Source: a virus
Lineage: Duplodnaviria > Heunggongvirae > Uroviricota > Caudoviricetes
Strand: one strand, 5' to 3'
IMG/VR virus record: IMGVR_UViG_2861079508_000001
DNA length: 64,000 nucleotides
The position numbers and the translations under genes are program-made. This document shows positions 6,191 to 57,295 of the stretch, one piece after another. Position 1 is the first letter of the stretch. Every line of letters begins with the position of its first letter. The notes under the pieces were generated by a model that saw only the letters and a program-made list of their open reading frames with translations, had not been told where the DNA came from and did not search any database.

Positions 6191-6209
6191 GTGCTTTCCT
6201 TTGTTTTTT

Positions 6210-7090: not shown

Positions 7091-7145
7091 CCTGCTTCCG
7101 TATATATTTAATAAGTTACTTATTATTTATATATACAGAAGCAGG
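7091..7145. repeat. 55-bp near-perfect palindrome, copy 1
   Basis: CCTGCTTCCGTATATATTTAATAAGTTACTTATTATTTATATATACAGAAGCAGG; identical copy at 41241-41295; centre AATAAGTTACTTATT is itself palindromic and motif-2-like. Confidence 0.6.
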
Positions 7146-41240: not shown

Positions 41241-41295
41241 CCTGCTTCCGTATATATTTAATAAGTTACTTATTATTTATATATACAGAAGCAGG
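41241..41295. repeat. 55-bp near-perfect palindrome, copy 2
   Basis: Identical to 7091-7145; lies in the non-coding region just upstream of the small terminase gene. Confidence 0.6.
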
Positions 41296-44575: not shown

Positions 44576-46135
44576 ATGACTGTTCGGATTGTATCTAACG
44601 CAGTAAATGCGCTTATTTCTGGCGCAGATGACAAGGTAAAGCAACTGGTGCAGCAAATGTTGAGCTACGAAGTCGAGACTGGCGACTGGAAGGGCACAAG
44701 CACGATGTTCAACTGGAGTAAAAACTCGTTCCCTGCTGGCTTTGCCAAGCCTGTAGCGGCGAACTTGAACAAGGCGGGCATCAAATGTGTTCATATCCGC
44801 AAAGACAAAGCCCCGGCGCTTGGTAAACCAAATCCGGCGGTTAACCCATTCCCATACAATCCTGATTATGCGTATCAGGATCAGACTGTGGAAACACTGG
44901 TTCGAGAGGGAATGATGATTGCGCAGATCGCTACTGGTGGCGGGAAATCTAACGTTGCCTGCAAAGCAGCTGCACGTATCGGTCGAATGACATTATTTTT
45001 AACAACCCGCTCTGTTCTGATGTTTCAAATGGCCGAAAACTTCCAGAGATCCATCGACTACCGCGCCGAAAATGGCGAACCGTGGTTAAAAGACCAAAAG
45101 GTTGGAGTCATTGGCTCGGGTGAGTTCCAGGTATCACGACATATCAACGTCGCTACAGTTCAAACTCTTGCAAGTTTCCTCGAAGAACCACCACGCGATG
45201 CAACACCAGATAAGAAAAGCTACCACCTCAAACGTCGGGAGTTGGTGAAACGCTTCCTTTCAAGTGTCTCTCTTCTTATTCTGGAAGAGGCGCATGAGTC
45301 TTCAGGCTCAAATTTCTATGACATCGCCAGATTATGTGTGAACGCAGACTATCGTCTGGCGCTTACAGCCACGCCGTTCATGAAGGATTCGACGGAAGCC
45401 AACATGCGCCTGATGGCGGTGGCCGGGCGAATTGAAATTAAAGTCACAGAAAAGTACCTGATTGATCGAGGCATTCTGGCAAAGCCGTACTTCCTTTATC
45501 ATAAAGTTGCCTACAAGCCAGACGAGGCCAGAATCAAGGCCGAACTTGCCAACAAACACCTCAATTTTAGAGTTGGTATGAGCACCGCCTACCAAAAGGC
45601 TTATCAGTTGGGGATCGTGTATAATTTGGGACGTAACGAGGCCATTGTTCGCGAAGCATTGCTCTATAAGCAACATTCTCTCAATTGTATGACTCTGGTT
45701 CGTCTTAAACGCCACGGGCAAATCCTGATGGAAATGATGAAAGAGTCCGGCCTTAGAGTTGACTTCATCTATGGGGAATCTAACCAGGCGACAAGGCAAG
45801 CAAAGCTGAACAGTTTAGCGTCTGGAGAAATAGATGTTTTAATAGGCTCGACTATTCTGGATGTCGGTGTTGATGTGCCAAGCGTTGGTGCGGTCATTCT
45901 TGCTGGTGGTGGGAAAGCAGAAGTTGAAATGAGGCAGCGTGTCGGTCGTGGCTTACGAGCCAAAAAAAATCAGGCAAACGTGTGTTTTATCACTGATTTC
46001 ATTGACATTAGCAACAAATACCTGTTGTCTCACTCTTATGAGCGAAAACACATCATCGACACCACACCTGGCTTTGCAGAAGGTGTATTGCCTATTGATG
46101 GAGCATTCGATTTTGGAGTTCTGAAACGAGATTAG
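44576..46135 (+). CDS. superfamily-2 DNA/RNA helicase
   Basis: Motif I ATGGGKS, motif II LEEAHE, motif III LTATP, motif VI QRVGRGLR; 519 aa; RBS AAGGAAAGAGG upstream. Confidence 0.7.
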   Translation: MTVRIVSNAVNALISGADDKVKQLVQQMLSYEVETGDWKGTSTMFNWSKNSFPAGFAKPVAANLNKAGIKCVHIRKDKAPALGKPNPAVNPFPYNPDYAYQDQTVETLVREGMMIAQIATGGGKSNVACKAAARIGRMTLFLTTRSVLMFQMAENFQRSIDYRAENGEPWLKDQKVGVIGSGEFQVSRHINVATVQTLASFLEEPPRDATPDKKSYHLKRRELVKRFLSSVSLLILEEAHESSGSNFYDIARLCVNADYRLALTATPFMKDSTEANMRLMAVAGRIEIKVTEKYLIDRGILAKPYFLYHKVAYKPDEARIKAELANKHLNFRVGMSTAYQKAYQLGIVYNLGRNEAIVREALLYKQHSLNCMTLVRLKRHGQILMEMMKESGLRVDFIYGESNQATRQAKLNSLASGEIDVLIGSTILDVGVDVPSVGAVILAGGGKAEVEMRQRVGRGLRAKKNQANVCFITDFIDISNKYLLSHSYERKHIIDTTPGFAEGVLPIDGAFDFGVLKRD

Positions 46136-46137
46136 TT

Positions 46138-46416
46138 ATGAGCGAAAAGAAAACAACTTATTGTCAGGTAGCATTGTCTGATAAGGCCAATGACAAACTT
46201 GGAAAGTTTCAAGTGAAACTAAAAGAAAAAAATATCAAAATGTCTAAGGCTGAAGTCATAAATACCATTCTGGAACAATTGACAATGGCCGACTTTGACA
46301 AGGTTATATCTTCTGTCGGGGCTTCCGCTAAGACTCGTGAGAAAATCATGCGTATCTATGAGAACTCTAATATGACAAAGGAAGATCTCGAAACGCTATT
46401 AAGCAGATTAAAATAA
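46138..46416 (+). CDS. hypothetical small protein
   Basis: 92 aa starting 3 nt after helicase stop; charged helical; possible DNA-binding. Confidence 0.4.
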   Translation: MSEKKTTYCQVALSDKANDKLGKFQVKLKEKNIKMSKAEVINTILEQLTMADFDKVISSVGASAKTREKIMRIYENSNMTKEDLETLLSRLK

Positions 46417-46484
46417 TCACGCTATCAATTAGGGAGACAAAGATGAAGTCTCCCATACTGTTCACTTTCTGTTCTAAAACTATC

Positions 46485-46907
46485 ATGAAATACTCGCTTC
46501 TCCCTCTACTAACGTTACCAGTGTTGATGCTTACCGCGTGCCAATCACGCCCAATATCAATCCATGACGCCAAACCAGCACCGCAGGCCAAAGTGTTCAA
46601 GTATCAAAGCGCAGCGCCAGCTACGTTGGTGGTAATGAGAGACACAGGTTTTGTAGGAGCTGGATGTGATGCTTCCATTTTCATCAACGGCGAAACTGTC
46701 GCAAAACTGGCTACAGGCGAAAAAGCGACTTTCCATTTAAATGCCGGAGAATTAATTGTGGGTGCATCTCTTGAAGGTGCAGGTTTATGTGCTCTAAACC
46801 CCGCTCGTCAAGAGCGAGAAACGACTCTGAAGAATGGAGACACAAAAGCGTTCAGGGTGTTCACCAGCAATTCTGGTGACATCGACATTCTGCCAACAAC
46901 TCTGTGA
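46485..46907 (+). CDS. putative lipoprotein
   Basis: Internal start gives signal peptide MKYSLLPLLTLPVLMLTAC with lipobox LTAC. Confidence 0.5.
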   Translation: MKYSLLPLLTLPVLMLTACQSRPISIHDAKPAPQAKVFKYQSAAPATLVVMRDTGFVGAGCDASIFINGETVAKLATGEKATFHLNAGELIVGASLEGAGLCALNPARQERETTLKNGDTKAFRVFTSNSGDIDILPTTL

Positions 46908-46911
46908 TGAC

Positions 46912-47436
46912 ATGACAACCAAAGATATTACCTACGGTATCCAAGCTGAACTCTGGCCGCGAGATTACACTAACGTTGAAAAACTACTGATGTTCTGGCG
47001 CAGAGAACAAATTCCTGTAAGGGTCACTCTCGAAGATGGCCAGGCGTTTTGCATGTACGTTTATGGCCTCATGCCATCTCGTAACAAAGTTGACCTTTGC
47101 CCAGCCCCTTTTGACAAAGAAAATCGTATAAGGCTCCCACTTGAACGCATTAGTACAATTGAATCAGGTGTGGTTGACAGTATCGCTCACGATTTCAAAG
47201 GTCGACTAACAGTTCACCCTGATTATGTCGATAATCGGCCATCACGCCGCGATTTTTTTGCAATTTGCAACCAAGCCTACAAAGCAAACAAATCTATAAG
47301 GGTGTACATGGCGGATGGCCGTGAAATTGAGGGGGTGTCAGCAGGCGCAGATGCTTGTCAGGTTACACTACGTGTCGAGAACGGTAGAAAAATAGTTGTT
47401 TTGTTCGATTGGGTTGAACGAATTTTGCCTTTTTGA
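46912..47436 (+). CDS. hypothetical protein
   Basis: Start trimmed to first ATG after upstream stop; ~175 aa. Confidence 0.4.
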   Translation: MTTKDITYGIQAELWPRDYTNVEKLLMFWRREQIPVRVTLEDGQAFCMYVYGLMPSRNKVDLCPAPFDKENRIRLPLERISTIESGVVDSIAHDFKGRLTVHPDYVDNRPSRRDFFAICNQAYKANKSIRVYMADGREIEGVSAGADACQVTLRVENGRKIVVLFDWVERILPF

Positions 47437-47439
47437 GTT

Positions 47440-47748
47440 ATGAAATCGATATTGTTACCACCATTATTTTTACTTTGCTCAGTTACGGCAAATGCAATGG
47501 ACTATAAGCCTGTCATTCAGTCGCTGATGAATGACGTGTGCTCAACGTCTCAGAATGTATCAGTTTGCATGTATCAATTTTCGGCAGCCGTAAAAGCAGG
47601 AAAAGCGATAGGTGAGAATGTGGAACTGTGTAAGAAAGTGGCAAATGAAGAAAGGGCAATGTTGGATTGCGAATCTAGCGAGTCATCGGCACAGTTCGTT
47701 GATGCGCTATTTGACACCAATCGTAAGGCTGTAGAGTCTGTTCAATAA
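47440..47748 (+). CDS. small secreted Cys-containing protein
   Basis: Signal peptide MKSILLPPLFLLCSVTANA; 4 further Cys; followed by hairpin terminator. Confidence 0.5.
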   Translation: MKSILLPPLFLLCSVTANAMDYKPVIQSLMNDVCSTSQNVSVCMYQFSAAVKAGKAIGENVELCKKVANEERAMLDCESSESSAQFVDALFDTNRKAVESVQ

Positions 47749-47760
47749 ATCTATAAGGTT

Positions 47761-47790
47761 AATAACCGGCTAAGTCCGGTTATTATTTTT
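47761..47790 (+). terminator. rho-independent terminator after gene 47440..47748
   Basis: AATAACCGG-CTAAGT-CCGGTTATT followed by ATTTTT. Confidence 0.55.
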
Positions 47791-48030
47791 CACATCACTT
47801 CTTTATATCTACAAATCAAATAACCTAAATATATATAAGGTCTAAAGCCGCAATCGATTATTTATTTAGGGAACACCTTCGACGATCTCGCTTTTATTTC
47901 TAGGACTTTCATCCCTGCAAAAAATTTTAAAAAACACTTGCAATCTATTTTCGCGTATCGATAATTGAGCTCGTCGAAAGCGAAGACGCTAACGACAATA
48001 AATTTTAAATTTACATAAGGAAAAATTATC

Positions 48031-48681
48031 ATGGCTAACATTATCATTTCTAAAAAATCCATCATTGAAGCTGCTTCCATTGTATCCGATGAACTGCGCG
48101 AAAAAGCAGATCTGGCAACTCAAACATATAACGAACATTATAAAAATGGTACGCACACTAAAGCAGACAAAGCAAATATGCAAGCTGCGACCACTAAACT
48201 TGCTTACTTCATCAACAACGTCGTAAACGCAGTAGAAGACGAAAAATTATGCTCTGTTTTCTACTATGCGATTAAAGCAAGCAAACAAGCGCCAGAAGTA
48301 TTTTTCCGTGATGCAATGACTAATAGTTATTCTCTGGAAAAACTGGTTTATCTGGTTAAATCAATTAAATCTGGTAAATGCGTTTATTCCATCGCTGATA
48401 TGTCAGGATCTCGTGTATTCGCTTTAATCGATATGATTAACGACGAGATCGACACGTTCACCAATGGCGCTGTTTTCGATTTAATGAATGAAGCTAAAAA
48501 AGCGTGCGAAATTAAATTGGACGCTGGCTATACTCAAGCCAACCAGTTGATCAATCTTTGCGAACGTCTTGGACTTGTTGAGAAAGTCAAAGGAATGGGA
48601 AGCGCAAAAGCTGGTACACAGCAATATCGCTTTATCAAGAATGATTTCTACAATTATTTAGCTGATGCTTTTAAAGCGTAA
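48031..48681 (+). CDS. hypothetical protein
   Basis: 216 aa; preceded by TTGCAA-N16-GATAAT promoter-like sequence and followed by GCGCCCACTATGGGCGC hairpin. Confidence 0.5.
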   Translation: MANIIISKKSIIEAASIVSDELREKADLATQTYNEHYKNGTHTKADKANMQAATTKLAYFINNVVNAVEDEKLCSVFYYAIKASKQAPEVFFRDAMTNSYSLEKLVYLVKSIKSGKCVYSIADMSGSRVFALIDMINDEIDTFTNGAVFDLMNEAKKACEIKLDAGYTQANQLINLCERLGLVEKVKGMGSAKAGTQQYRFIKNDFYNYLADAFKA

Positions 48682-48692
48682 TTAATGGAATC

Positions 48693-48713
48693 AAGCGCCC
48701 ACTATGGGCGCTT
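48693..48713 (+). terminator. hairpin terminator (GCGCCCACTATGGGCGC) after gene 48031..48681
   Basis: Same hairpin reused at 49192-49217; short T-run. Confidence 0.45.
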
Positions 48714-48731
48714 TAAAGGAGCTTTAAAAAA

Positions 48732-48935
48732 ATGGTCAGCTATGACAAGATCCGCGCAAAGTATCGCGCAAAGTATCGCGCTTATAAACTGGAATTAATC
48801 GATGATTTGATCGCGCAACGCGACCAATTAAATTTTACGTTTTCTGATTTGCTTAACAGCAAGCGAGATTGCAAGCGCAAACGTGAATACTTACGTTTAA
48901 GCGCATTAATCGGAAAACTTCAAAATTCTATTTAA
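48732..48935 (+). CDS. hypothetical small basic protein
   Basis: 67 aa; contains direct DNA repeat CGCGCAAAGTAT x2 near its 5' end. Confidence 0.35.
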   Translation: MVSYDKIRAKYRAKYRAYKLELIDDLIAQRDQLNFTFSDLLNSKRDCKRKREYLRLSALIGKLQNSI

Positions 48936-48956
48936 TTTTTTTTAAGGAGCTTAATC

Positions 48957-49187
48957 ATGTTTGTTCTTATCGCTGGCGTTAACGTCCATAATGAATATTA
49001 TGTTAATCGCATCGCTGGGATCGCTGGTTACGCTGGGCGCGCAGTCGAGCTTATAGATGAAACGACGCGCAAAATTGACTTATTGAGCGACCAGGAGCGA
49101 AAAAAAGCAGACGTGAACGACGCTGATATATTTTTAATGTTAAAAGCGTTTGTAGAAATGGGATTTAAAATCAGTTTACACAAATAA
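48957..49187 (+). CDS. hypothetical small protein
   Basis: 76 aa; RBS AAGGAG upstream; strong terminator downstream. Confidence 0.4.
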   Translation: MFVLIAGVNVHNEYYVNRIAGIAGYAGRAVELIDETTRKIDLLSDQERKKADVNDADIFLMLKAFVEMGFKISLHK

Positions 49188-49191
49188 AATC

Positions 49192-49217
49192 GAGCGCCCA
49201 CTATGGGCGCTTTTTTT
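49192..49217 (+). terminator. rho-independent terminator after gene 48957..49187
   Basis: GCGCCCACTATGGGCGC followed by TTTTTTT. Confidence 0.65.
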
Positions 49218-49238
49218 CGTTTCCAATACACCTACCAT

Positions 49239-49266
49239 AACGCGCCATCATTGGCGCGTTTTTATT
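49239..49266 (+). terminator. second tandem terminator
   Basis: ACGCGCCA-TCAT-TGGCGCGT followed by TTTTTATT. Confidence 0.55.
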
Positions 49267-49659
49267 GTCTTTAACTCACTCCAACAACATAAAAATAAGC
49301 GCCAAAATAACGCCATAGACGCGCTTTTATATCCTTACCAGTACATGCCCATTACTTAACACATTAACGCGCTTAAAACGCATTATATTGCGCTATAGAG
49401 TATGGTTAATCATTGGCTTTTAGTCTTGCTATGTGATCCGCGTTTATTTGTCGGTGCGGATCGGCATTTTGTTTTGTTCTGTATCCGCTCGCGTATTATG
49501 TGCGCGTAATTTTTCACATAATCACACCACTTAATCACGTATGTGATTATGCTACGAAAGAAATCTGGATGTCTCAGGCGACGAAAGTCATCATAATTTC
49601 CCCCGCTCACCTGTCCGACAACCGCTGGTTGGATTCCACCAGCTTCCCGATGTTTTTTC

Positions 49660-49800
49660 TACACAAAGGCGAATGCAGCCGTTTCCCGAAAAAATCCTGG
49701 CCGTTCCCCGTCGGCTCATGAATACGTTCCTCGCCGTTTCTGAAAATTTCCCTGCGGCAGCTGGTGGCTATAGAGAAAGGGCCGTTTCTGGCCCTCTTCT
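49660..49800 (+). repeat. iteron-like direct repeat array A (unit ~CCGTTTCCCGAAAA)
   Basis: At least 4 degenerate copies (AGCCGTTTCCCGAAAAAA, GCCGTTCCCCG, CGCCGTTTCTGAAAATTTCCC, GCCGTTTCTGG) in a region without convincing ORFs. Confidence 0.5.
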
Positions 49801-49803
49801 CAG

Positions 49804-50286
49804 TTACACGCCATCAAGGATGTGGATGCGGTTGCTTGCGTATACATTCAGCATAAAGTTAGCGCAAAACAGTTTCCATGTATCAACGCCAGCGGTATAC
49901 GTAATGTTTTTGCATTTAATTGCATTGTTGGCGATCCGCATCCCCTGCGATACTGCTTCATCGTCGGAAAATTTGAACGACGATTGAGTTTTAATCCAGA
50001 CAGAAATCTGCGTAGCGAACTCAATCAGCTTGGACTGGCAGAATCGCCCGGAGCGCACCGGAAGGACGAACGTTCCGAATCCAGAATTTACCACATATGC
50101 TTTCTCAAATACCCGCGAGTAACGACGATTGCCAATGATGTCGCGTGCAATAATGCATTTTTCTTGTGCTGACAGTTCTACCGTCTCATTGTCGCGCCAT
50201 GCACCAAGTACTCGTTTTTCAATGTCAGAGAACGTTACAGCGATATTGCCATGTGCGGGTGCGTTTACAGTAGCGATAAAATTCAT
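49804..50286 (-). CDS. hypothetical protein
   Basis: 160 aa; own promoter with motif-1 operator between GATAAT and RBS. Confidence 0.45.
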   Translation of the reverse strand: MNFIATVNAPAHGNIAVTFSDIEKRVLGAWRDNETVELSAQEKCIIARDIIGNRRYSRVFEKAYVVNSGFGTFVLPVRSGRFCQSKLIEFATQISVWIKTQSSFKFSDDEAVSQGMRIANNAIKCKNITYTAGVDTWKLFCANFMLNVYASNRIHILDGV

Positions 50287-50307
50287 GATTAATTCCTTAT
50301 CGTAAAT

Positions 50308-50322
50308 AACAAATTGTTTTCT
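50308..50322. promoter_or_regulatory. motif 1 operator-like palindrome
   Basis: Minus-sense layout GATAAT - 8 nt - AGAAAACAATTTGTT - RBS - ATG of gene 49804..50286. Confidence 0.55.
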
Positions 50323-50636
50323 TGTTGGTGTTAATTATCGTTGTACGAATAAGGCGTCAAAGTGGAAAGTTGCGGTAGCCGGACGGGAACAGGTGGGTTT
50401 GTCGGTTGCCTGGAGGTAAGAGGTTGGTGTTATTAGCCTGAGGGAAACAGGATGGTCATTTAAGACCACCAATGCTGGTGGCCTTAATAATTATCGCCCG
50501 ATTACGCTAAGGATCTTTTCCTCAACTGATTTGTTGTTGCGACTAAACTGCCTTGCGTATCTGATGACAGAAGAGGCGTTTTGCTTTCTGACCATCTCGG
50601 CTCTTTCCTTCAGGCGTTTCTTGAAATCGCCCATAT

Positions 50637-51011
50637 TTACCACCAGGCGCAGAAGGTCAGTCTGTTATTGTGAAAGTCGTGGTTCTTAATCAGATCTTCC
50701 ACAAGCTCTTTCAACTGCCCCACATCATGCCAGTAACCTTCGTCGTACTCCTGACTGCCGAAGAAAAAACCTTCCCGAGTAGGCAAGTACTCTTCGCAAT
50801 TGCTTTCGTTTATGTGCATCAAATGAGCTTTCAGAAGACAAATGTCATTCATCGTTAATTCTAAAAGCTCACAATTTTCGACTTCACCTACGTTGCGCTC
50901 CATCCACCCAACGAGCGCATTGAACTTACGGAAGTAAGCAACCTGCTTTCTGGATGCCTCGTTATTCAGATCGTTTTTAGGCTGTGTCTCGATATAGATA
51001 TCAAGTCCCAT
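50637..51011 (-). CDS. hypothetical acidic protein
   Basis: Start set at ATG preceded by GGAA; highly acidic; motif-1 variant upstream. Confidence 0.45.
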   Translation of the reverse strand: MGLDIYIETQPKNDLNNEASRKQVAYFRKFNALVGWMERNVGEVENCELLELTMNDICLLKAHLMHINESNCEEYLPTREGFFFGSQEYDEGYWHDVGQLKELVEDLIKNHDFHNNRLTFCAWW

Positions 51012-51067
51012 GATGGTTTCCTTATTAACTTGCTTCAGTAAAATCATTTTCACAAATCAGATAAGGC

Positions 51068-51083
51068 AGAAAACAAATTGTTA
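51068..51083. promoter_or_regulatory. motif 1 variant (AGAAAACAAATTGTTA)
   Basis: Upstream of gene 50637..51011. Confidence 0.45.
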
Positions 51084-51095
51084 TCTGGCTTAATA

Positions 51096-51120
51096 AAATG
51101 GCGCGGTTTACGCGCCATTT
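51096..51120 (-). terminator. rho-independent terminator after amber-interrupted gene
   Basis: Minus-sense AAATGGCGCG-TAAA-CCGCGCCATTT followed by TATT. Confidence 0.6.
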
Positions 51121-51128
51121 AAAGAGGA

Positions 51129-51524
51129 TTAAGCGAATACGCTTTCAGGGATTAAGGTGTCGGCAGGAATGCCAGAGGTAATGCGCAGGCCGTACTGACC
51201 AATCCAGGTAGTGTTGGTATTCAGGCTGGAGGCGAATACGGTGTTAACCATATTCATCATGGTTTCAAACACCTCTTCATCAACCTAGCGGAAGTAGTTC
51301 TCGATTTTCAGCAGCAGCGGGTCAGTTGCATCGAGAATGGACTGGTATTGAGTCGCGTACTCGCCGCCGGAGGCATCACCTTTACGCACGATCGTACTGG
51401 CCTGGACTTCGGCACCAGTTTCGGTGTTGTACGTAACAACGGTAATTTTTGCCACATTCTTACCTTCGGCGGTTTCAGAGGCATAGTAAACATCAACTGT
51501 CAGTTTTTCGCGTTTAACGGTCAT
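51129..51524 (-). pseudogene. hypothetical gene interrupted by in-frame amber (TAG) codon at 51285-51287
   Basis: 79-codon ORF ends at TAG but the same frame continues for 52 protein-like codons to TAA at 51129-51131, which is immediately followed by a hairpin+T-run terminator. Confidence 0.5.
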
Positions 51525-51562
51525 TTCACTCTCCGTAGTGTATTGGTTATTTTTATATTCTA

Positions 51563-51587
51563 TAATCGTAAGTATTTACTTACAATA
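51563..51587 (-). promoter_or_regulatory. motif 2 element
   Basis: AATCGTAAGTATTTACTTACAATAC upstream of amber-interrupted gene. Confidence 0.4.
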
Positions 51588-51649
51588 CAAAAAGCCCCGT
51601 AAGGATGGCGGGGCTGTCGTACTGTCGACTAATTGCCACTTGCACATTA

Positions 51650-51961
51650 TCAGGCTATTGCCATCACTGATGCTCTCTGAATTTCTTGCTGGGCCACGCG
51701 GTTAACTTCCATCAAGGCCAGTTCGAGCTGATGTTCCGGCCACATTCTTTGAAACGCCATCCAGCCTTTTCCACGCTGGCGACGAACATTCATTACATAA
51801 CGAGTAAAGGTGTTTTTATCGAAAGACACCGCTGTTTCACGGAACAGACGAATAGAGGTTCCATTGGCAACGATGTCCAGCAAAGTTAATTGAGCAACCA
51901 GCGCAGGCTTCTCTTTTCTCTTCTGGTCTTTGTCCAGACCAAGAACCAATGATTTTTTCAT
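51650..51961 (-). CDS. hypothetical basic protein
   Basis: Start set at internal ATG (MKKSLVLGLD...) because the motif-1 operator overlaps the longer ORF. Confidence 0.45.
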   Translation of the reverse strand: MKKSLVLGLDKDQKRKEKPALVAQLTLLDIVANGTSIRLFRETAVSFDKNTFTRYVMNVRRQRGKGWMAFQRMWPEHQLELALMEVNRVAQQEIQRASVMAIA

Positions 51962-51972
51962 CACAACTCCGT

Positions 51973-51988
51973 AAACAACTTGTTTTCT
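51973..51988. promoter_or_regulatory. motif 1 operator-like palindrome
   Basis: Between TATTATTTA (-10-like) and ATG of gene 51650..51961. Confidence 0.55.
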
Positions 51989-52115
51989 CAATGGCGTAAA
52001 TAATACCAATAAGAAAACGGCTACAAAGCATAATGATCAGGTGCATGAGCGATATGCAGGTTCTTCCCTGCGGCTACAGATTAAGTTAAGCCAGCAATGC
52101 TGGCTTTGGTTGGGA

Positions 52116-55104: not shown

Positions 55105-57138
55105 TTACTTAACCTGGTGGCCAGGTTTAGCACCAGCATCCGGGCTTAACAGGAAGATATCTTTCCCGCCGGGGCCAGCAGCCATCACCATGCCTTCAGA
55201 GATACCGAAGCGCATTTTACGTGGTGCCAGGTTAGCCACCATAATGGTGTGACGACCAATCAGTGCCTGTGGATCTGGATAAGCGGAACGGATGCCTGAG
55301 AAGACATTACGCTTTTCACCACCGAGATCCAGCGTCAGGCGAAGCAGTTTGTCAGAACCTTCTACAAACTCTGCGTTTTCAATCAGCGCCACGCGCAGGT
55401 CAACTTTGGCGAAGTCGTCAAAGGTGATAGTTTCCTGAATCGGGTCGTCAGCCAGTGGGCCAGTTACCGGTGCGGCTGTGGCTTTCACTTCTTCTTTGGA
55501 TGCTTCCACCAGTGCTTCAACCTGCTTCATATCGATGCGGTTATACAGTGCCTTGAACGGATTCACTTTATGGCCCAGCAGCGGTTGCTGGATACCATCC
55601 CAGGTCAGTTCTGTATTCAGGAATGCTTCTGCACGTTCAGTCAGTTTCGGCAGTACCGGTTTCAGGTACGTCATCAGCACGCGGAACAGGTTAATGCCCA
55701 TAGAGCAAATCGCCTGCAGATCGGCATCGCGTCCTTCCTGCTTTGCCACCACCCACGGAGCCTGTTCATCAACATAGCGGTTAGCCAGGTCAGCCAGTGC
55801 CATGATTTCACGGATAGCTTTGCCAAATTCGCGGCTTTCCCATGCTTCGCCAATCACTTCAGCGGCATCAGTAAAGGTTTTGTACAGTTGCGGGTCAGCC
55901 AGTTCGCTTGCCAGCACGCCGTCAAAACGCTTGTTGATAAAGCCTGCATTACGGGAGGCCAGGTTAACCACTTTGTTAACGATATCGGCATTCACACGCT
56001 GAACGAAATCTTCCAGGTTGAGATCGATATCATCAATGCGCGAAGAGAGTTTCGCAGTGTAGTAGTAACGCAGGCTGTCGGCGTCAAAATGATTCAGCCA
56101 GGTGCTGGCTTTAATAAAGGTGCCGCGAGACTTGGACATCTTCGCGCCGTTCACCGTCACATAGCCGTGAACAAACAGGTTGGTCGGCTTGCGGAAGTTG
56201 CTGCCTTCCAGCATGGCAGGCCAGAACAGGCTGTGGAAGTAAACGATATCTTTGCCGATGAAGTGGTACAGCTCGGCGGTGGAGTCTTTCTTCCAGTATT
56301 CGTCGAAGCTGGTAGTGTCGCCGCGTTTGTCGCACAGATTCTTGAAGGAACCCATGTAGCCAATCGGCGCGTCCAGCCAGACGTAGAAGTATTTGCCCGG
56401 TGCGTTCGGAATTTCAAAACCGAAGTAAGGTGCGTCACGGGAGATATCCCACTGTTGCAGGCCAGATTCAAACCACTCCTGCATTTTGTTTGCCACCTGC
56501 TCCTGCAACGCACCGCTGCGGGTCCATGCCTGCAACATTTCGCTGAAAGAAGGCAGATCAAAGAAGAAGTGTTCGGAATCACGCATTACCGGTGTAGCGC
56601 CAGAAACCACTGATTTCGGCTCGATCAGTTCCGTCGGGCTGTATGTCGCGCCGCAGACTTCACAGTTATCGCCGTATTGATCCGGCGCTTTACATTTCGG
56701 GCATGTGCCTTTTACAAAACGGTCCGGCAGGAACATGCCTTTTTCCGGGTCGTACAGCTGAGAGATGGTGCGGTTTTTAATAAAACCGTTCTCTTTCAGG
56801 CGAGTATAGATAAGCTCGGACAACTGACGGTTCTCTTCGCTGTGCGTCGAGTGATAGTTGTCATAGCTGATGTTAAAGCCTGCGAAATCAGTCTGATGTT
56901 CCTGACTCATTTCGCCAATCATCTGTTCCGGTGTGATACCAAGCTGCTGTGCTTTCAGCATGATTGGCGTACCGTGGGCATCGTCGGCACAGATGAAATT
57001 AACCTCGTGGCCGCGCATTCGCTGGTAACGAACCCAGACATCAGCCTGGATGTGCTCCAGCATATGGCCGAGGTGGATTGAGCCGTTAGCGTACGGCAGC
57101 GCGCACGTCACCAGAATTTTCTTCGCGACTTGGGTCAT
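55105..57138 (-). CDS. metG: methionine--tRNA ligase
   Basis: 677-aa product from the ATG at 57136-57138 (track ORF is 43 codons longer from an upstream alternative start); HLGH and KMSKS class-I motifs; sequence I recognise as Escherichia-type MetG. Confidence 0.95.
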
Positions 57139-57295
57139 AGTAGGCATTACTTCTTTGTAGTGAAAAGGGGCTTGATAGTAACAAAATGGCCTTATGTCTG
57201 CCATGTGATAACAGCATTTCTCATAAATGATTAAATGTCGTAGCTGGAGTACACTACAAGGCGACAATTGCGCAAATTAAAATAAAGGAGACGGG

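Follow-up and report, generated by a model that had tools for sequence, protein, structure and literature searches.

Small phage genes that travel with transcription signals of their own have been described in two settings. The PeSL cassettes of T4-type phages are small open reading frames (ORFs) flanked by conserved repeats, each carrying a strong promoter and a stem-loop terminator (Arbiol et al. 2010, PMC2839356; PMC4122927); small ORFs are inserted, deleted and replaced at these repeats, which occur in many copies over the hyperplastic regions (PMC2839356). Lambdoid morons are additions with their own promoter and terminator and a distinct GC content that are expressed from a repressed prophage (Cumby, Davidson and Maxwell 2012, PMC3594210). 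Here we examine a locus that recalls both: the AT-rich segment 47800-49300 in 64,000 nucleotides of caudoviral DNA (IMG/VR record IMGVR_UViG_2861079508_000001; the whole stretch is called the window below), which holds a gene for a 216-aa protein, two small ORFs (F1 and F2) and three predicted terminators (HP1, HP2 and T3). A first-pass annotation of the sequence had suggested that genes 48031-49187 form a separately acquired mosaic block. The reading that we favour, with moderate confidence, is of a conserved, self-contained unit of SSU5/pHCM2/pMT1-type phage-plasmids that probably belongs to the lytic programme and carries exchangeable small ORFs.

As in PeSLs, short terminator-hairpin repeats bound insertions, deletions and replacements of small ORFs between close relatives. 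Unlike a PeSL, the repeat consists of a hairpin with a T-run/Shine-Dalgarno linker, no promoter lies between the ORFs, and there are two copies in 64 kb, at one locus behind a conserved gene whose promoter the cassettes share. By this comparison the unit is not a PeSL, although its cassettes behave much as in PeSL shuffling. With morons the locus shares its own predicted promoter and three terminators, a low GC content, and small ORFs that amount to "more DNA" relative to some relatives; it departs from them in two of the four traits just listed, because no relative lacks the 216-aa gene and because a lysogen of the related element Cyrano leaves the unit silent.

Three further comparisons are more partial. 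A hairpin without a full U-tract between a proximal and a distal gene, combined with strong terminators at the end, yields a high proximal to distal ratio of expression. HP1 likewise lacks a full U-tract, HP2 and T3, presumably strong, follow, and about 2-fold fewer reads fall past HP1 in Cyrano. The locus resembles the iteron origins of plasmid Rep systems or lambda O, and resembles them only, in having direct repeats at helical-turn spacing, an A/T tract and an adjacent gene for a predicted winged-helix protein; it differs in that there is no initiator match by sequence or full fold, no DnaA box, a mere three repeats, and an orientation that varies in one relative. Nor does the hairpin look like an integron attC site, being a 17-nt perfect stem, with no integrase adjoining the locus according to the annotations and breakpoints that are not site-specific.

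The AT-rich gene and its upstream region

By best DNA matches, the block and its surroundings are of the SSU5/pHCM2/pMT1 phage-plasmid type. The block is 97.5% identical to Escherichia phage CMS-2020a, 94% to PhiR41_1, 91% to Cyrano, which is a plasmid-prophage in E. coli LF82, and 82% to Salmonella phage SSU5. Similar DNA occurs in 763 PLSDB plasmids from Klebsiella, Escherichia, Enterobacter, Yersinia pestis (pMT1), Salmonella, Citrobacter and Cronobacter, 192 of which reach at least 80% query coverage. The central gene (48031-48681, plus strand) encodes the 216-aa protein, which falls in PHROG 1513, annotated as of unknown function (E 6e-140). Synteny was followed in SSU5, pMT1, Cyrano, PhiR41_1 and six plasmids from five genera, Klebsiella, Enterobacter and Cronobacter among them. 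In all of these relatives the order runs from a UvsW-like helicase gene through small ORFs, a FljA-like regulator (PF03614) and the 216-aa gene to one or more small ORFs and a convergent 160-aa gene. Even remote homologues, recovered by profile search, keep the synteny of two ParB_N genes, helicase and 216-like gene. The family is confined to these elements: an exhaustive hidden Markov model (HMM) search of 1.84 billion representatives yielded 23 clusters only.

That the segment is compositionally distinct, as the first-pass annotation had it, is borne out by GC profiling. Its GC content is 0.375 against a window mean of 0.469 (standard deviation (sd) 0.031); only 0.16% of 1.5-kb windows are as GC-poor, and the lowest-GC 1-kb windows in the 64 kb are confined to 47.2-48.6 kb. 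Of 75 ORFs, that for the 216-aa protein ranks last in GC content at third codon positions (GC3), with 0.352, and its AT shift is present at all three codon positions. The same composition is found throughout the family. In every relative the gene has a GC of 0.38-0.42 and a GC3 of 0.34-0.47, the flanking genes spanning GC3 values of 0.40-0.74, and one homologue retains a GC of 0.414 inside an element of 0.53. Against the SSU5, Klebsiella and Cronobacter copies, synonymous sites are saturated (proportion of synonymous differences (pS) 0.55-0.78) and the ratio of nonsynonymous to synonymous change (dN/dS) is 0.04-0.19; the gene is under strong purifying selection. The fraction of optimal codons (Fop) is 0.632, which ranks sixth among the 75 ORFs and may be compared with 0.746 for the major head, 0.644 for the scaffold and 0.655 for the tail gene.

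Because the GC is stable, the divergence saturated and the codon usage of this kind, we take the low GC to be an old, maintained trait of an expression-tuned gene. The AT-rich 216-aa gene is an old core gene of SSU5-type phage-plasmids, and no recent foreign insert. The proposal of a separately acquired block at 48031-49187 accordingly falls for this gene, which occupies the same position in all relatives examined, the very observation that the first-pass annotation had named as its refutation. What stands is mosaicism on a finer scale, in the small ORFs of 67 and 76 aa, which have been gained, lost, doubled and combined.

The AlphaFold2 (AF2) model of the 216-aa protein (predicted local distance difference test (pLDDT) 81.5, predicted template modelling score (pTM) 0.71) begins with a long hairpin of helices, continues into a conserved helical core and ends in a winged helix-turn-helix (H145-158, H168-179, E183-186, E198-201). 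Foldseek searches of PDB and BFVD matched only local winged-helix domains over ~90 residues (probability ~1.0, best E ~0.03), those of MukF, Orc1/Cdc6, ArsR/HlyU, TubR, MarR and RTP; matches to Pfam winged-helix families were weak and sub-threshold. Sequence searches of Pfam, NCBIfam, PADLOC and PDB with the 216-, 67-, 76-, 102- and 160-aa proteins of the region returned nothing above threshold, none of the five matching a PADLOC defence model. On the strength of the model, the 216-aa protein probably binds DNA and represents a new family.

Upstream, the left edge of the unit is set by an intrinsic terminator (47760-47785, plus strand) with a 10-bp stem and a T-run (-12.6 kcal/mol, z -3.7). 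It is conserved in relatives and belongs to the upstream operon, which runs from the helicase gene by way of the FljA-like gene to a 102-aa gene. Beyond it lies a non-coding element, A-B-C (47831-47909), made of three similar direct repeats at 31-32 nt spacing: block A, TATATAAGG (47832-47840), block B, ATTTATTTAGGGAACACCTTC (47860-47880), and block C, TTTATTTCTAGGACTTT (47893-47909), the repeats reading TATATAAGG, TATTTAGGGAAC and TATTTCTAGGAC. The element occurs once in the window. In all relatives, including elements of 33% and 53% GC, its blocks are invariant, its spacers variable and its total length fixed. RNAalifold shows no structure and no covariation in A-B-C, which points to a protein-binding array at the DNA level; a reading as a small RNA (sRNA) was dropped on the same grounds. 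A search of Rfam with 45000-52000 at E <= 1 produced a chance small nucleolar RNA (snoRNA) match only. In the relative L118, A-B-C stays on the helicase side while the gene unit is inverted, and in L127 it sits ~320 nt upstream of the gene. A search for DnaA boxes found none near the locus.

An A/T tract, AAAAAATTTTAAAAAAC (47919-47935, plus strand), lies directly 5' of the -35 and is A/T-rich in all relatives; it may serve as an UP element. The predicted sigma-70-type promoter (47938-47965, plus strand; 9/12 in a consensus scan) is present as first described, with TTGCAA at 47938-47943, a spacer of 16 nt and GATAAT at 47960-47965. Its -35 CTTG and -10 ATAAT stay in place even in relatives with no more than 49% protein identity. 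The mRNA is predicted to start with a putative small stem-loop, GTCG AA AGCG AAGA CGCT AA CGAC (47973-47996, plus strand), in which RNAalifold finds 7 pairs, 2 with compensatory changes, at weak energy; distant relatives show, by eye, other hairpins at this position. The stem-loop could be an mRNA stabiliser or a regulator site. A palindrome, TATCGATA, also falls within 47750-48030.

The promoter was further said to be of a different type from those in the rest of the window, and this too is supported. The motif AGAAAACAAnTTGTTTTCT is palindromic, mostly intergenic and often followed by a conserved promoter-like stretch, and it has 13 copies in the window against 0.04 expected (at 6207, 9137, 41161, 46148, 47386, 50304, 51068, 51970, 54954, 55005, 61536, 62250 and 62979). 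It is absent from the 216-aa unit: the promoter/regulatory region of the unit, and indeed all of 47405-50303, is free of copies, and the closest are a weak match with 3 mismatches at 47386-47404, inside the FljA-like gene, and that at 50304. AGAAAACAAnTTGTTTTCT is probably the operator/promoter motif of most transcription units of the element; it is probably also, at a guess, what the earlier annotation meant by motif-1/2.

Terminator hairpins and small-gene exchange

The downstream part of the unit is framed by a reused hairpin and a further terminator, both of which had been picked out at the first pass. The 17-nt hairpin GCGCCCACTATGGGCGC stands at 48695-48711 and 49194-49210; these are its only two copies in the window, against 0.09 expected even allowing 3 mismatches. 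Each copy sits within a 31-nt direct repeat (48684-48714 and 49183-49213, 90% identical) and folds as an 8-9 bp stem (-15.5 and -16.9 kcal/mol). The first copy, HP1 (48695-48711, plus strand), lies 14 nt past the stop codon of the 216-aa gene and is followed by TTTAAAGGAGC, the Shine-Dalgarno of the next ORF, with only 3 T. HP2 (49194-49217, plus strand) consists of the second copy and a run of 7 T, and GCGC-TTTTTTCGTTTC at this place is kept in all relatives. The third terminator, T3, is AACGCGCCATCATTGGCGCGTT plus a T-run (49239-49265, plus strand; stem 49239-49260, -15.7 kcal/mol) and forms the right edge of the unit. As predicted terminators, HP2 and T3 have the full pattern of a GC-rich stem-loop and U-tract, which HP1 matches in part. 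HP1 is thus probably a partial terminator or attenuator, whereas HP2 is by prediction a full intrinsic terminator and possibly a bidirectional one.

The hairpin is a constant feature of the family. In the first eleven loci compared it is found 12-14 nt past the 216-aa stop in 11/11. After an internal copy comes a Shine-Dalgarno, after the last one TTTTTTCGTTTC: in Cronobacter pGK1025B_1, which has no small ORF, the single hairpin bears the T-run, and in the other loci the final small ORF is succeeded by a second hairpin that carries TTTTTTCGTTTC. When IMG/VR was scanned for the 17-mer, 104 stretches emerged, ~90 of which adjoin a 216-aa homologue, with one hairpin stretch per contig (100-110 kb) except for one adjacent split pair; the ~10 matches with no 216-aa or 160-aa homologue nearby are close to a rough chance estimate. 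Since these loci were first picked by the exact 17-mer, a check for bias was made on six loci found by protein identity (53-74%), five of which have the same stem, the exception being L118.

What is conserved is a 7-bp stem, GCGCCCA/TGGGCGC, around a free 3-nt loop, and all loop variants keep the A...T closing pair. In L001, L007, L010, L116, L123 and many IMG/VR loci the loop ACTAT has been swapped, at either copy, for its reverse complement ATAGT with the stem intact, which looks like recurrent small inversion; other variants alter the 3 central loop bases only. Because nearby neutral sites are saturated, the identity of the stem calls for either constraint or homogenisation.

Between the two hairpins lie the small ORFs. 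F1 (48732-48935, plus strand) encodes a basic, helical protein of 67 aa (PHROG 6145, E 5.5e-46); members of its family are 67 or 64 aa long, those of the F2 family 76 or 75 aa. The direct repeat noted at the first pass is real and belongs to F1, where CGCGCAAAGTAT stands in tandem at 48753-48764 and 48765-48776 and encodes RAKYRAKYRA. Most relatives have an imperfect CGCGCGGAATAT-CGCGCAAAGTAT (RAEYRAKYRAY), and the perfect doubling at 48753-48776 is a lineage-specific change in a coding repeat, nothing more. F1 co-diverges with the 216-aa gene (pS 0.61-0.73, dN/dS 0.03-0.07 in those comparisons), and Cyrano-type relatives are without it. At its 3' end a junction, TTTTTTTTAAGGAGCTTAATC (48936-48956, plus strand), repeats the stretch behind HP1 (48712-48730), with its T-run and Shine-Dalgarno. 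No hairpin separates F1 from F2 in the window; instead, the linker TTT(T)AAGGAGCTT flanks F1 on either side.

F2 (48957-49187, plus strand; 76 aa, PHROG 1585) has a different history. Its pS is 0.02-0.28 between backbones whose 216-aa genes have a pS of 0.55-0.65, its nucleotide identity is 93-95%, and its dN/dS is 0.1-0.6. F2, HP2 and T3 together are 93-97% identical between backbones with 216-aa genes that are 76-88% identical, which shows that the F2 cassette and its terminators were exchanged recently between backbones. L037 and L088 hold two paralogous F2 copies with a hairpin after each. If H stands for the hairpin, the architectures found are H alone, H-F1-H, H-F2-H, H-F1-F2-H (the window), H-F2-H-F2-H and H-H-H; in some relatives two or three bare units of hairpin and T-run follow one another at 44-nt spacing. 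One F2 homologue on a 5.2-Mb contig lies in another copy of such an element, with a FljA-like gene upstream and no 216-aa gene called. The AF2 model of the 76-aa protein (pLDDT 55) was too poor for a fold search.

The hairpins suggest themselves as breakpoints of the recent F2 exchange, a candidate rejected by fine mapping, which places the breakpoints inside the 216-aa gene and at T3. The right one is sharp: between Cyrano and L005/L010, identity falls from ~1.0 to ~0.5-0.6 directly past T3. Given breakpoints in the 3' half of the 216-aa gene and at T3, ordinary homologous and short-homology recombination explains the mosaic, and no dedicated site-specific system need be invoked. The repeats of hairpin and linker account for the gain and loss of small ORFs, and mosaicism is restricted to the part downstream of the AT-rich gene.

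Proposed expression and competing interpretations

Expression of the homologous unit can be followed in RNA-seq of an LF82 lysogen with Cyrano (Misson et al., PMC9928086, S1 Table), which represents one strain in one study. In the lysogen CYRAN_113, the 216-aa homologue, scores 5.9 and CYRAN_112, the 76-aa homologue, 5.0, with a floor of 4.99 and a Cyrano median of 9.8, while the upstream operon is on (helicase 46, CYRAN_117 114, FljA-like 18; PMC9928086). After 6 h in macrophages CYRAN_113, before HP1, reaches ~43 fragments per kilobase per million (fpkm), and CYRAN_112, after HP1, ~19 fpkm (PMC9928086). Neither gene is among the 13 Cyrano morons. No useful pHCM2 transcriptome was found in the literature. 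Since the promoter looks constitutive and yet is off in the lysogen, we conclude that it is repressed there and probably serves the lytic programme, and the high-output design together with the silence in lysogeny suggests that it does so early. The locus would then be a repressed, lytic-phase and probably early transcription unit; candidate repressors are the adjacent FljA-like protein, phage repressors, and H-NS acting on AT-rich DNA.

In the working model, the sigma-70-type promoter behind the A/T tract would drive the predicted winged-helix protein of 216 aa from a unit apparently built for high output: its codon usage resembles that of capsid genes, its Shine-Dalgarno is good, a 5' stem-loop may be present, and three terminators follow one another. 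Silent during lysogeny, the unit would be switched on in the lytic, probably early, programme. HP1, which has no full T-run, would let only part of the transcripts through to one or two small accessory ORFs, and HP2 with its T-run, followed by T3, would end transcription. The small ORFs are the mobile part, gained, lost, duplicated and exchanged between related phage-plasmids by ordinary recombination. Its junctions are the two repeats, of the hairpin and of the T-run/Shine-Dalgarno linker, together with the conserved 3' half of the 216-aa gene and the edge at T3. Of this picture, the anatomy, its conservation and synteny, selection, the variation and recent exchange of cassettes and the silence in one lysogen are established; how strong the promoter is, that it fires in the lytic phase, that HP1 terminates in part and that the protein binds DNA we infer.

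Several observations weigh against this model. The sole transcriptomes found are those of the lysogen and of the macrophage experiment, with its mild rise at 6 h, and the low read counts could equally reflect H-NS-type silencing of AT-rich DNA or decay after transcription. The bare promoter consensus is not above chance, with 12 sites against 10.4 expected in 5 kb. The Fop of the 216-aa gene exceeds the window mean by just ~1.7 sd and depends on the list of optimal codons taken for E. coli. Matches to known folds are weak (best E 0.03) and extend over ~40% of the protein. In L118/L119, whose 216-aa homologue is 63% identical, promoter, gene and terminators are inverted together with respect to the helicase and A-B-C, and GAGCGCCAGAAATGGCGCTC stands in place of the usual hairpin. 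Finally, the left breakpoint of the recent exchange lies in the 3' half of the 216-aa gene and not at HP1, so the hairpin is not the sole junction.

Of the other interpretations, the one that fares best, though we regard it as doubtful, makes the locus a lytic origin module. A-B-C would supply iteron-like sites, the A/T tract an unwinding element and the predicted winged-helix protein an initiator, on only in the lytic cycle. Three repeats at 31-32 nt, their blocks invariant and their overall length fixed in very distant relatives, are what such a module could look like, and the want of RNA structure in A-B-C suggests a DNA site. The spot is the AT-richest in the window, the weak winged-helix fold matches include Orc1/Cdc6, RTP and phage replication proteins, the genes for the helicase and ParB_N are always linked to it, and in the plasmid, that is lysogenic, state the unit stays silent. 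Against this, the 216-aa protein matches no initiator family in Pfam, NCBIfam or PDB sequence searches and has one winged helix, where Rep_3-type initiators have two. No DnaA box lies nearby, and the inversion in L118 and the ~320-nt gap in L127 suggest that A-B-C may belong with the helicase operon.

A broader version of the idea would make the AT-rich segment a control centre for lytic replication or some other DNA transaction. The winged-helix protein would recognise A-B-C and the A/T tract, and the hairpin would be a second specific site and a docking point that captures small genes behind a very strong lytic promoter. We think this improbable, if slightly less far-fetched than what follows.

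The high-output design and the silence in lysogeny would also suit an early host-takeover or anti-defence locus, in which a conserved protein and fast-turnover small ORFs would act against the host's functions or its defences. F1 and F2 do vary between relatives, with duplication and lateral exchange, the dN/dS of F2 reaches 0.1-0.6, and the families are confined to these elements. On the other hand, no known defence or anti-defence protein is resembled, the PHROG annotation gives unknown function, and a dN/dS of 0.04-0.19 for the 216-aa gene is unlike that of typical arms-race genes; we therefore consider such a role unlikely.

It is less likely still that the 17-nt hairpin is, beyond a terminator, a sequence-specific site, whether a protein-binding palindrome or a site of cassette recombination. 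The idea draws on the 7-bp stem, identical in nearly all copies while adjacent synonymous sites are saturated and only the 3 loop bases vary or flip, on the cassettes and bare 44-nt hairpin units arrayed between copies, and on the confinement of the motif to one locus, the ~10 unrelated matches being near chance. The breakpoints of recent exchange speak against it, lying inside the 216-aa gene and at T3, as do the hairpin-free joint of F1 and F2 in the window and the divergent first copies in L016, L021/L115, L050 and L118. Concerted evolution and frequent exchange among co-resident elements could keep the copies identical, and no recombinase is linked to the hairpin.

The least probable reading, in which a foreign island or moron came in recently, bringing a promoter and terminators, and is expressed from the prophage to the benefit of the host, can appeal to the lowest-GC stretch of the window, to a promoter-like site and terminators of its own, to the missing AGAAAACAAnTTGTTTTCT and to small ORFs that are variable additions, but for the 216-aa gene it is refuted by synteny, since neither the relatives nor the remote homologues show the gene in any other position, and it sits badly with a low GC held over saturated divergence and in a 53% GC backbone, with well-adapted codon usage, and with homologues that are at the detection floor in the lysogen and outside the 13 Cyrano morons.

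Neighbouring features and significance

The unit is bordered by features that deserve notice in their own right. The FljA-like gene upstream (46834-47436) matches PF03614 at E 2.5e-84 and has a weak Hfq-like match. FljA proteins block translation of fliC mRNA (PMC2652032), and the protein encoded here could target host flagellin or the neighbouring unit; the Cyrano homologue is on in the lysogen and rises ~15-fold in macrophages. The heptamer TATAAGG occurs four times within 47127-47834. Between the FljA-like gene and the left-edge terminator lies an ORF of 102 aa (47440-47748; PHROG 9536) with a signal-peptide-like N-terminus. A 99-aa ORF is similarly placed in Cronobacter pGK1025B_1 and L123, none is annotated there in Cyrano, SSU5 or PhiR41_1, and the match of the DNA to the last of these begins exactly at 47750; the 102-aa ORF looks like another variable small gene.

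On the far side, 49270-49800 is a 600-nt gene-free stretch between convergent genes, with further hairpins. It includes a motif at ~49368-49400, GCGCTTAnAAyGC...GCGTTTTA, that is kept in distant relatives, and a good promoter-like site on the minus strand, TTAACC-16-TATAAT (49409-49382). Identity is patchy, 96% to L060 within 49271-49400 but 57% to L005. The stretch could hold an sRNA or a regulatory site. Farther away, a 55-nt near-palindrome, CCTGCTTCCGTATATATTTAATAAGTTACTTATTATTTATATATACAGAAGCAGG, is present in 100% identical copies at 7091-7145 and 41241-41295, 34 kb apart and bracketing a stretch that takes in the head and tail genes (31-37 kb). A 699-aa gene at 55105-57204, which the annotations of Cyrano and PhiR41_1 call methionyl-tRNA synthetase, is among those with the window's highest optimal-codon fractions (0.677), and its homologue CYRAN_100 scores only ~16 in the lysogen.

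Low GC together with a promoter and terminators of its own is, on this example, insufficient to call a segment a moron or a recent acquisition, and what appeared to be a foreign island is recast as a defined conserved unit. Phage-plasmids of the SSU5/pHCM2/pMT1 type are widespread in Escherichia, Klebsiella, Salmonella, Enterobacter and Yersinia pestis; their lytic/lysogenic control and lytic replication appear to have been little studied. The unit offers testable parts to that end: a repressed promoter, a predicted winged-helix family restricted to the group, an ancient three-repeat element, and an invariant hairpin that frames exchangeable genes. If the unit proved to be a lytic origin with its initiator, or a lytic switch, it would provide a handle on the induction of elements that carry resistance genes; otherwise, it would be an example of terminator-framed cassette shuffling beyond the T4-type phages.

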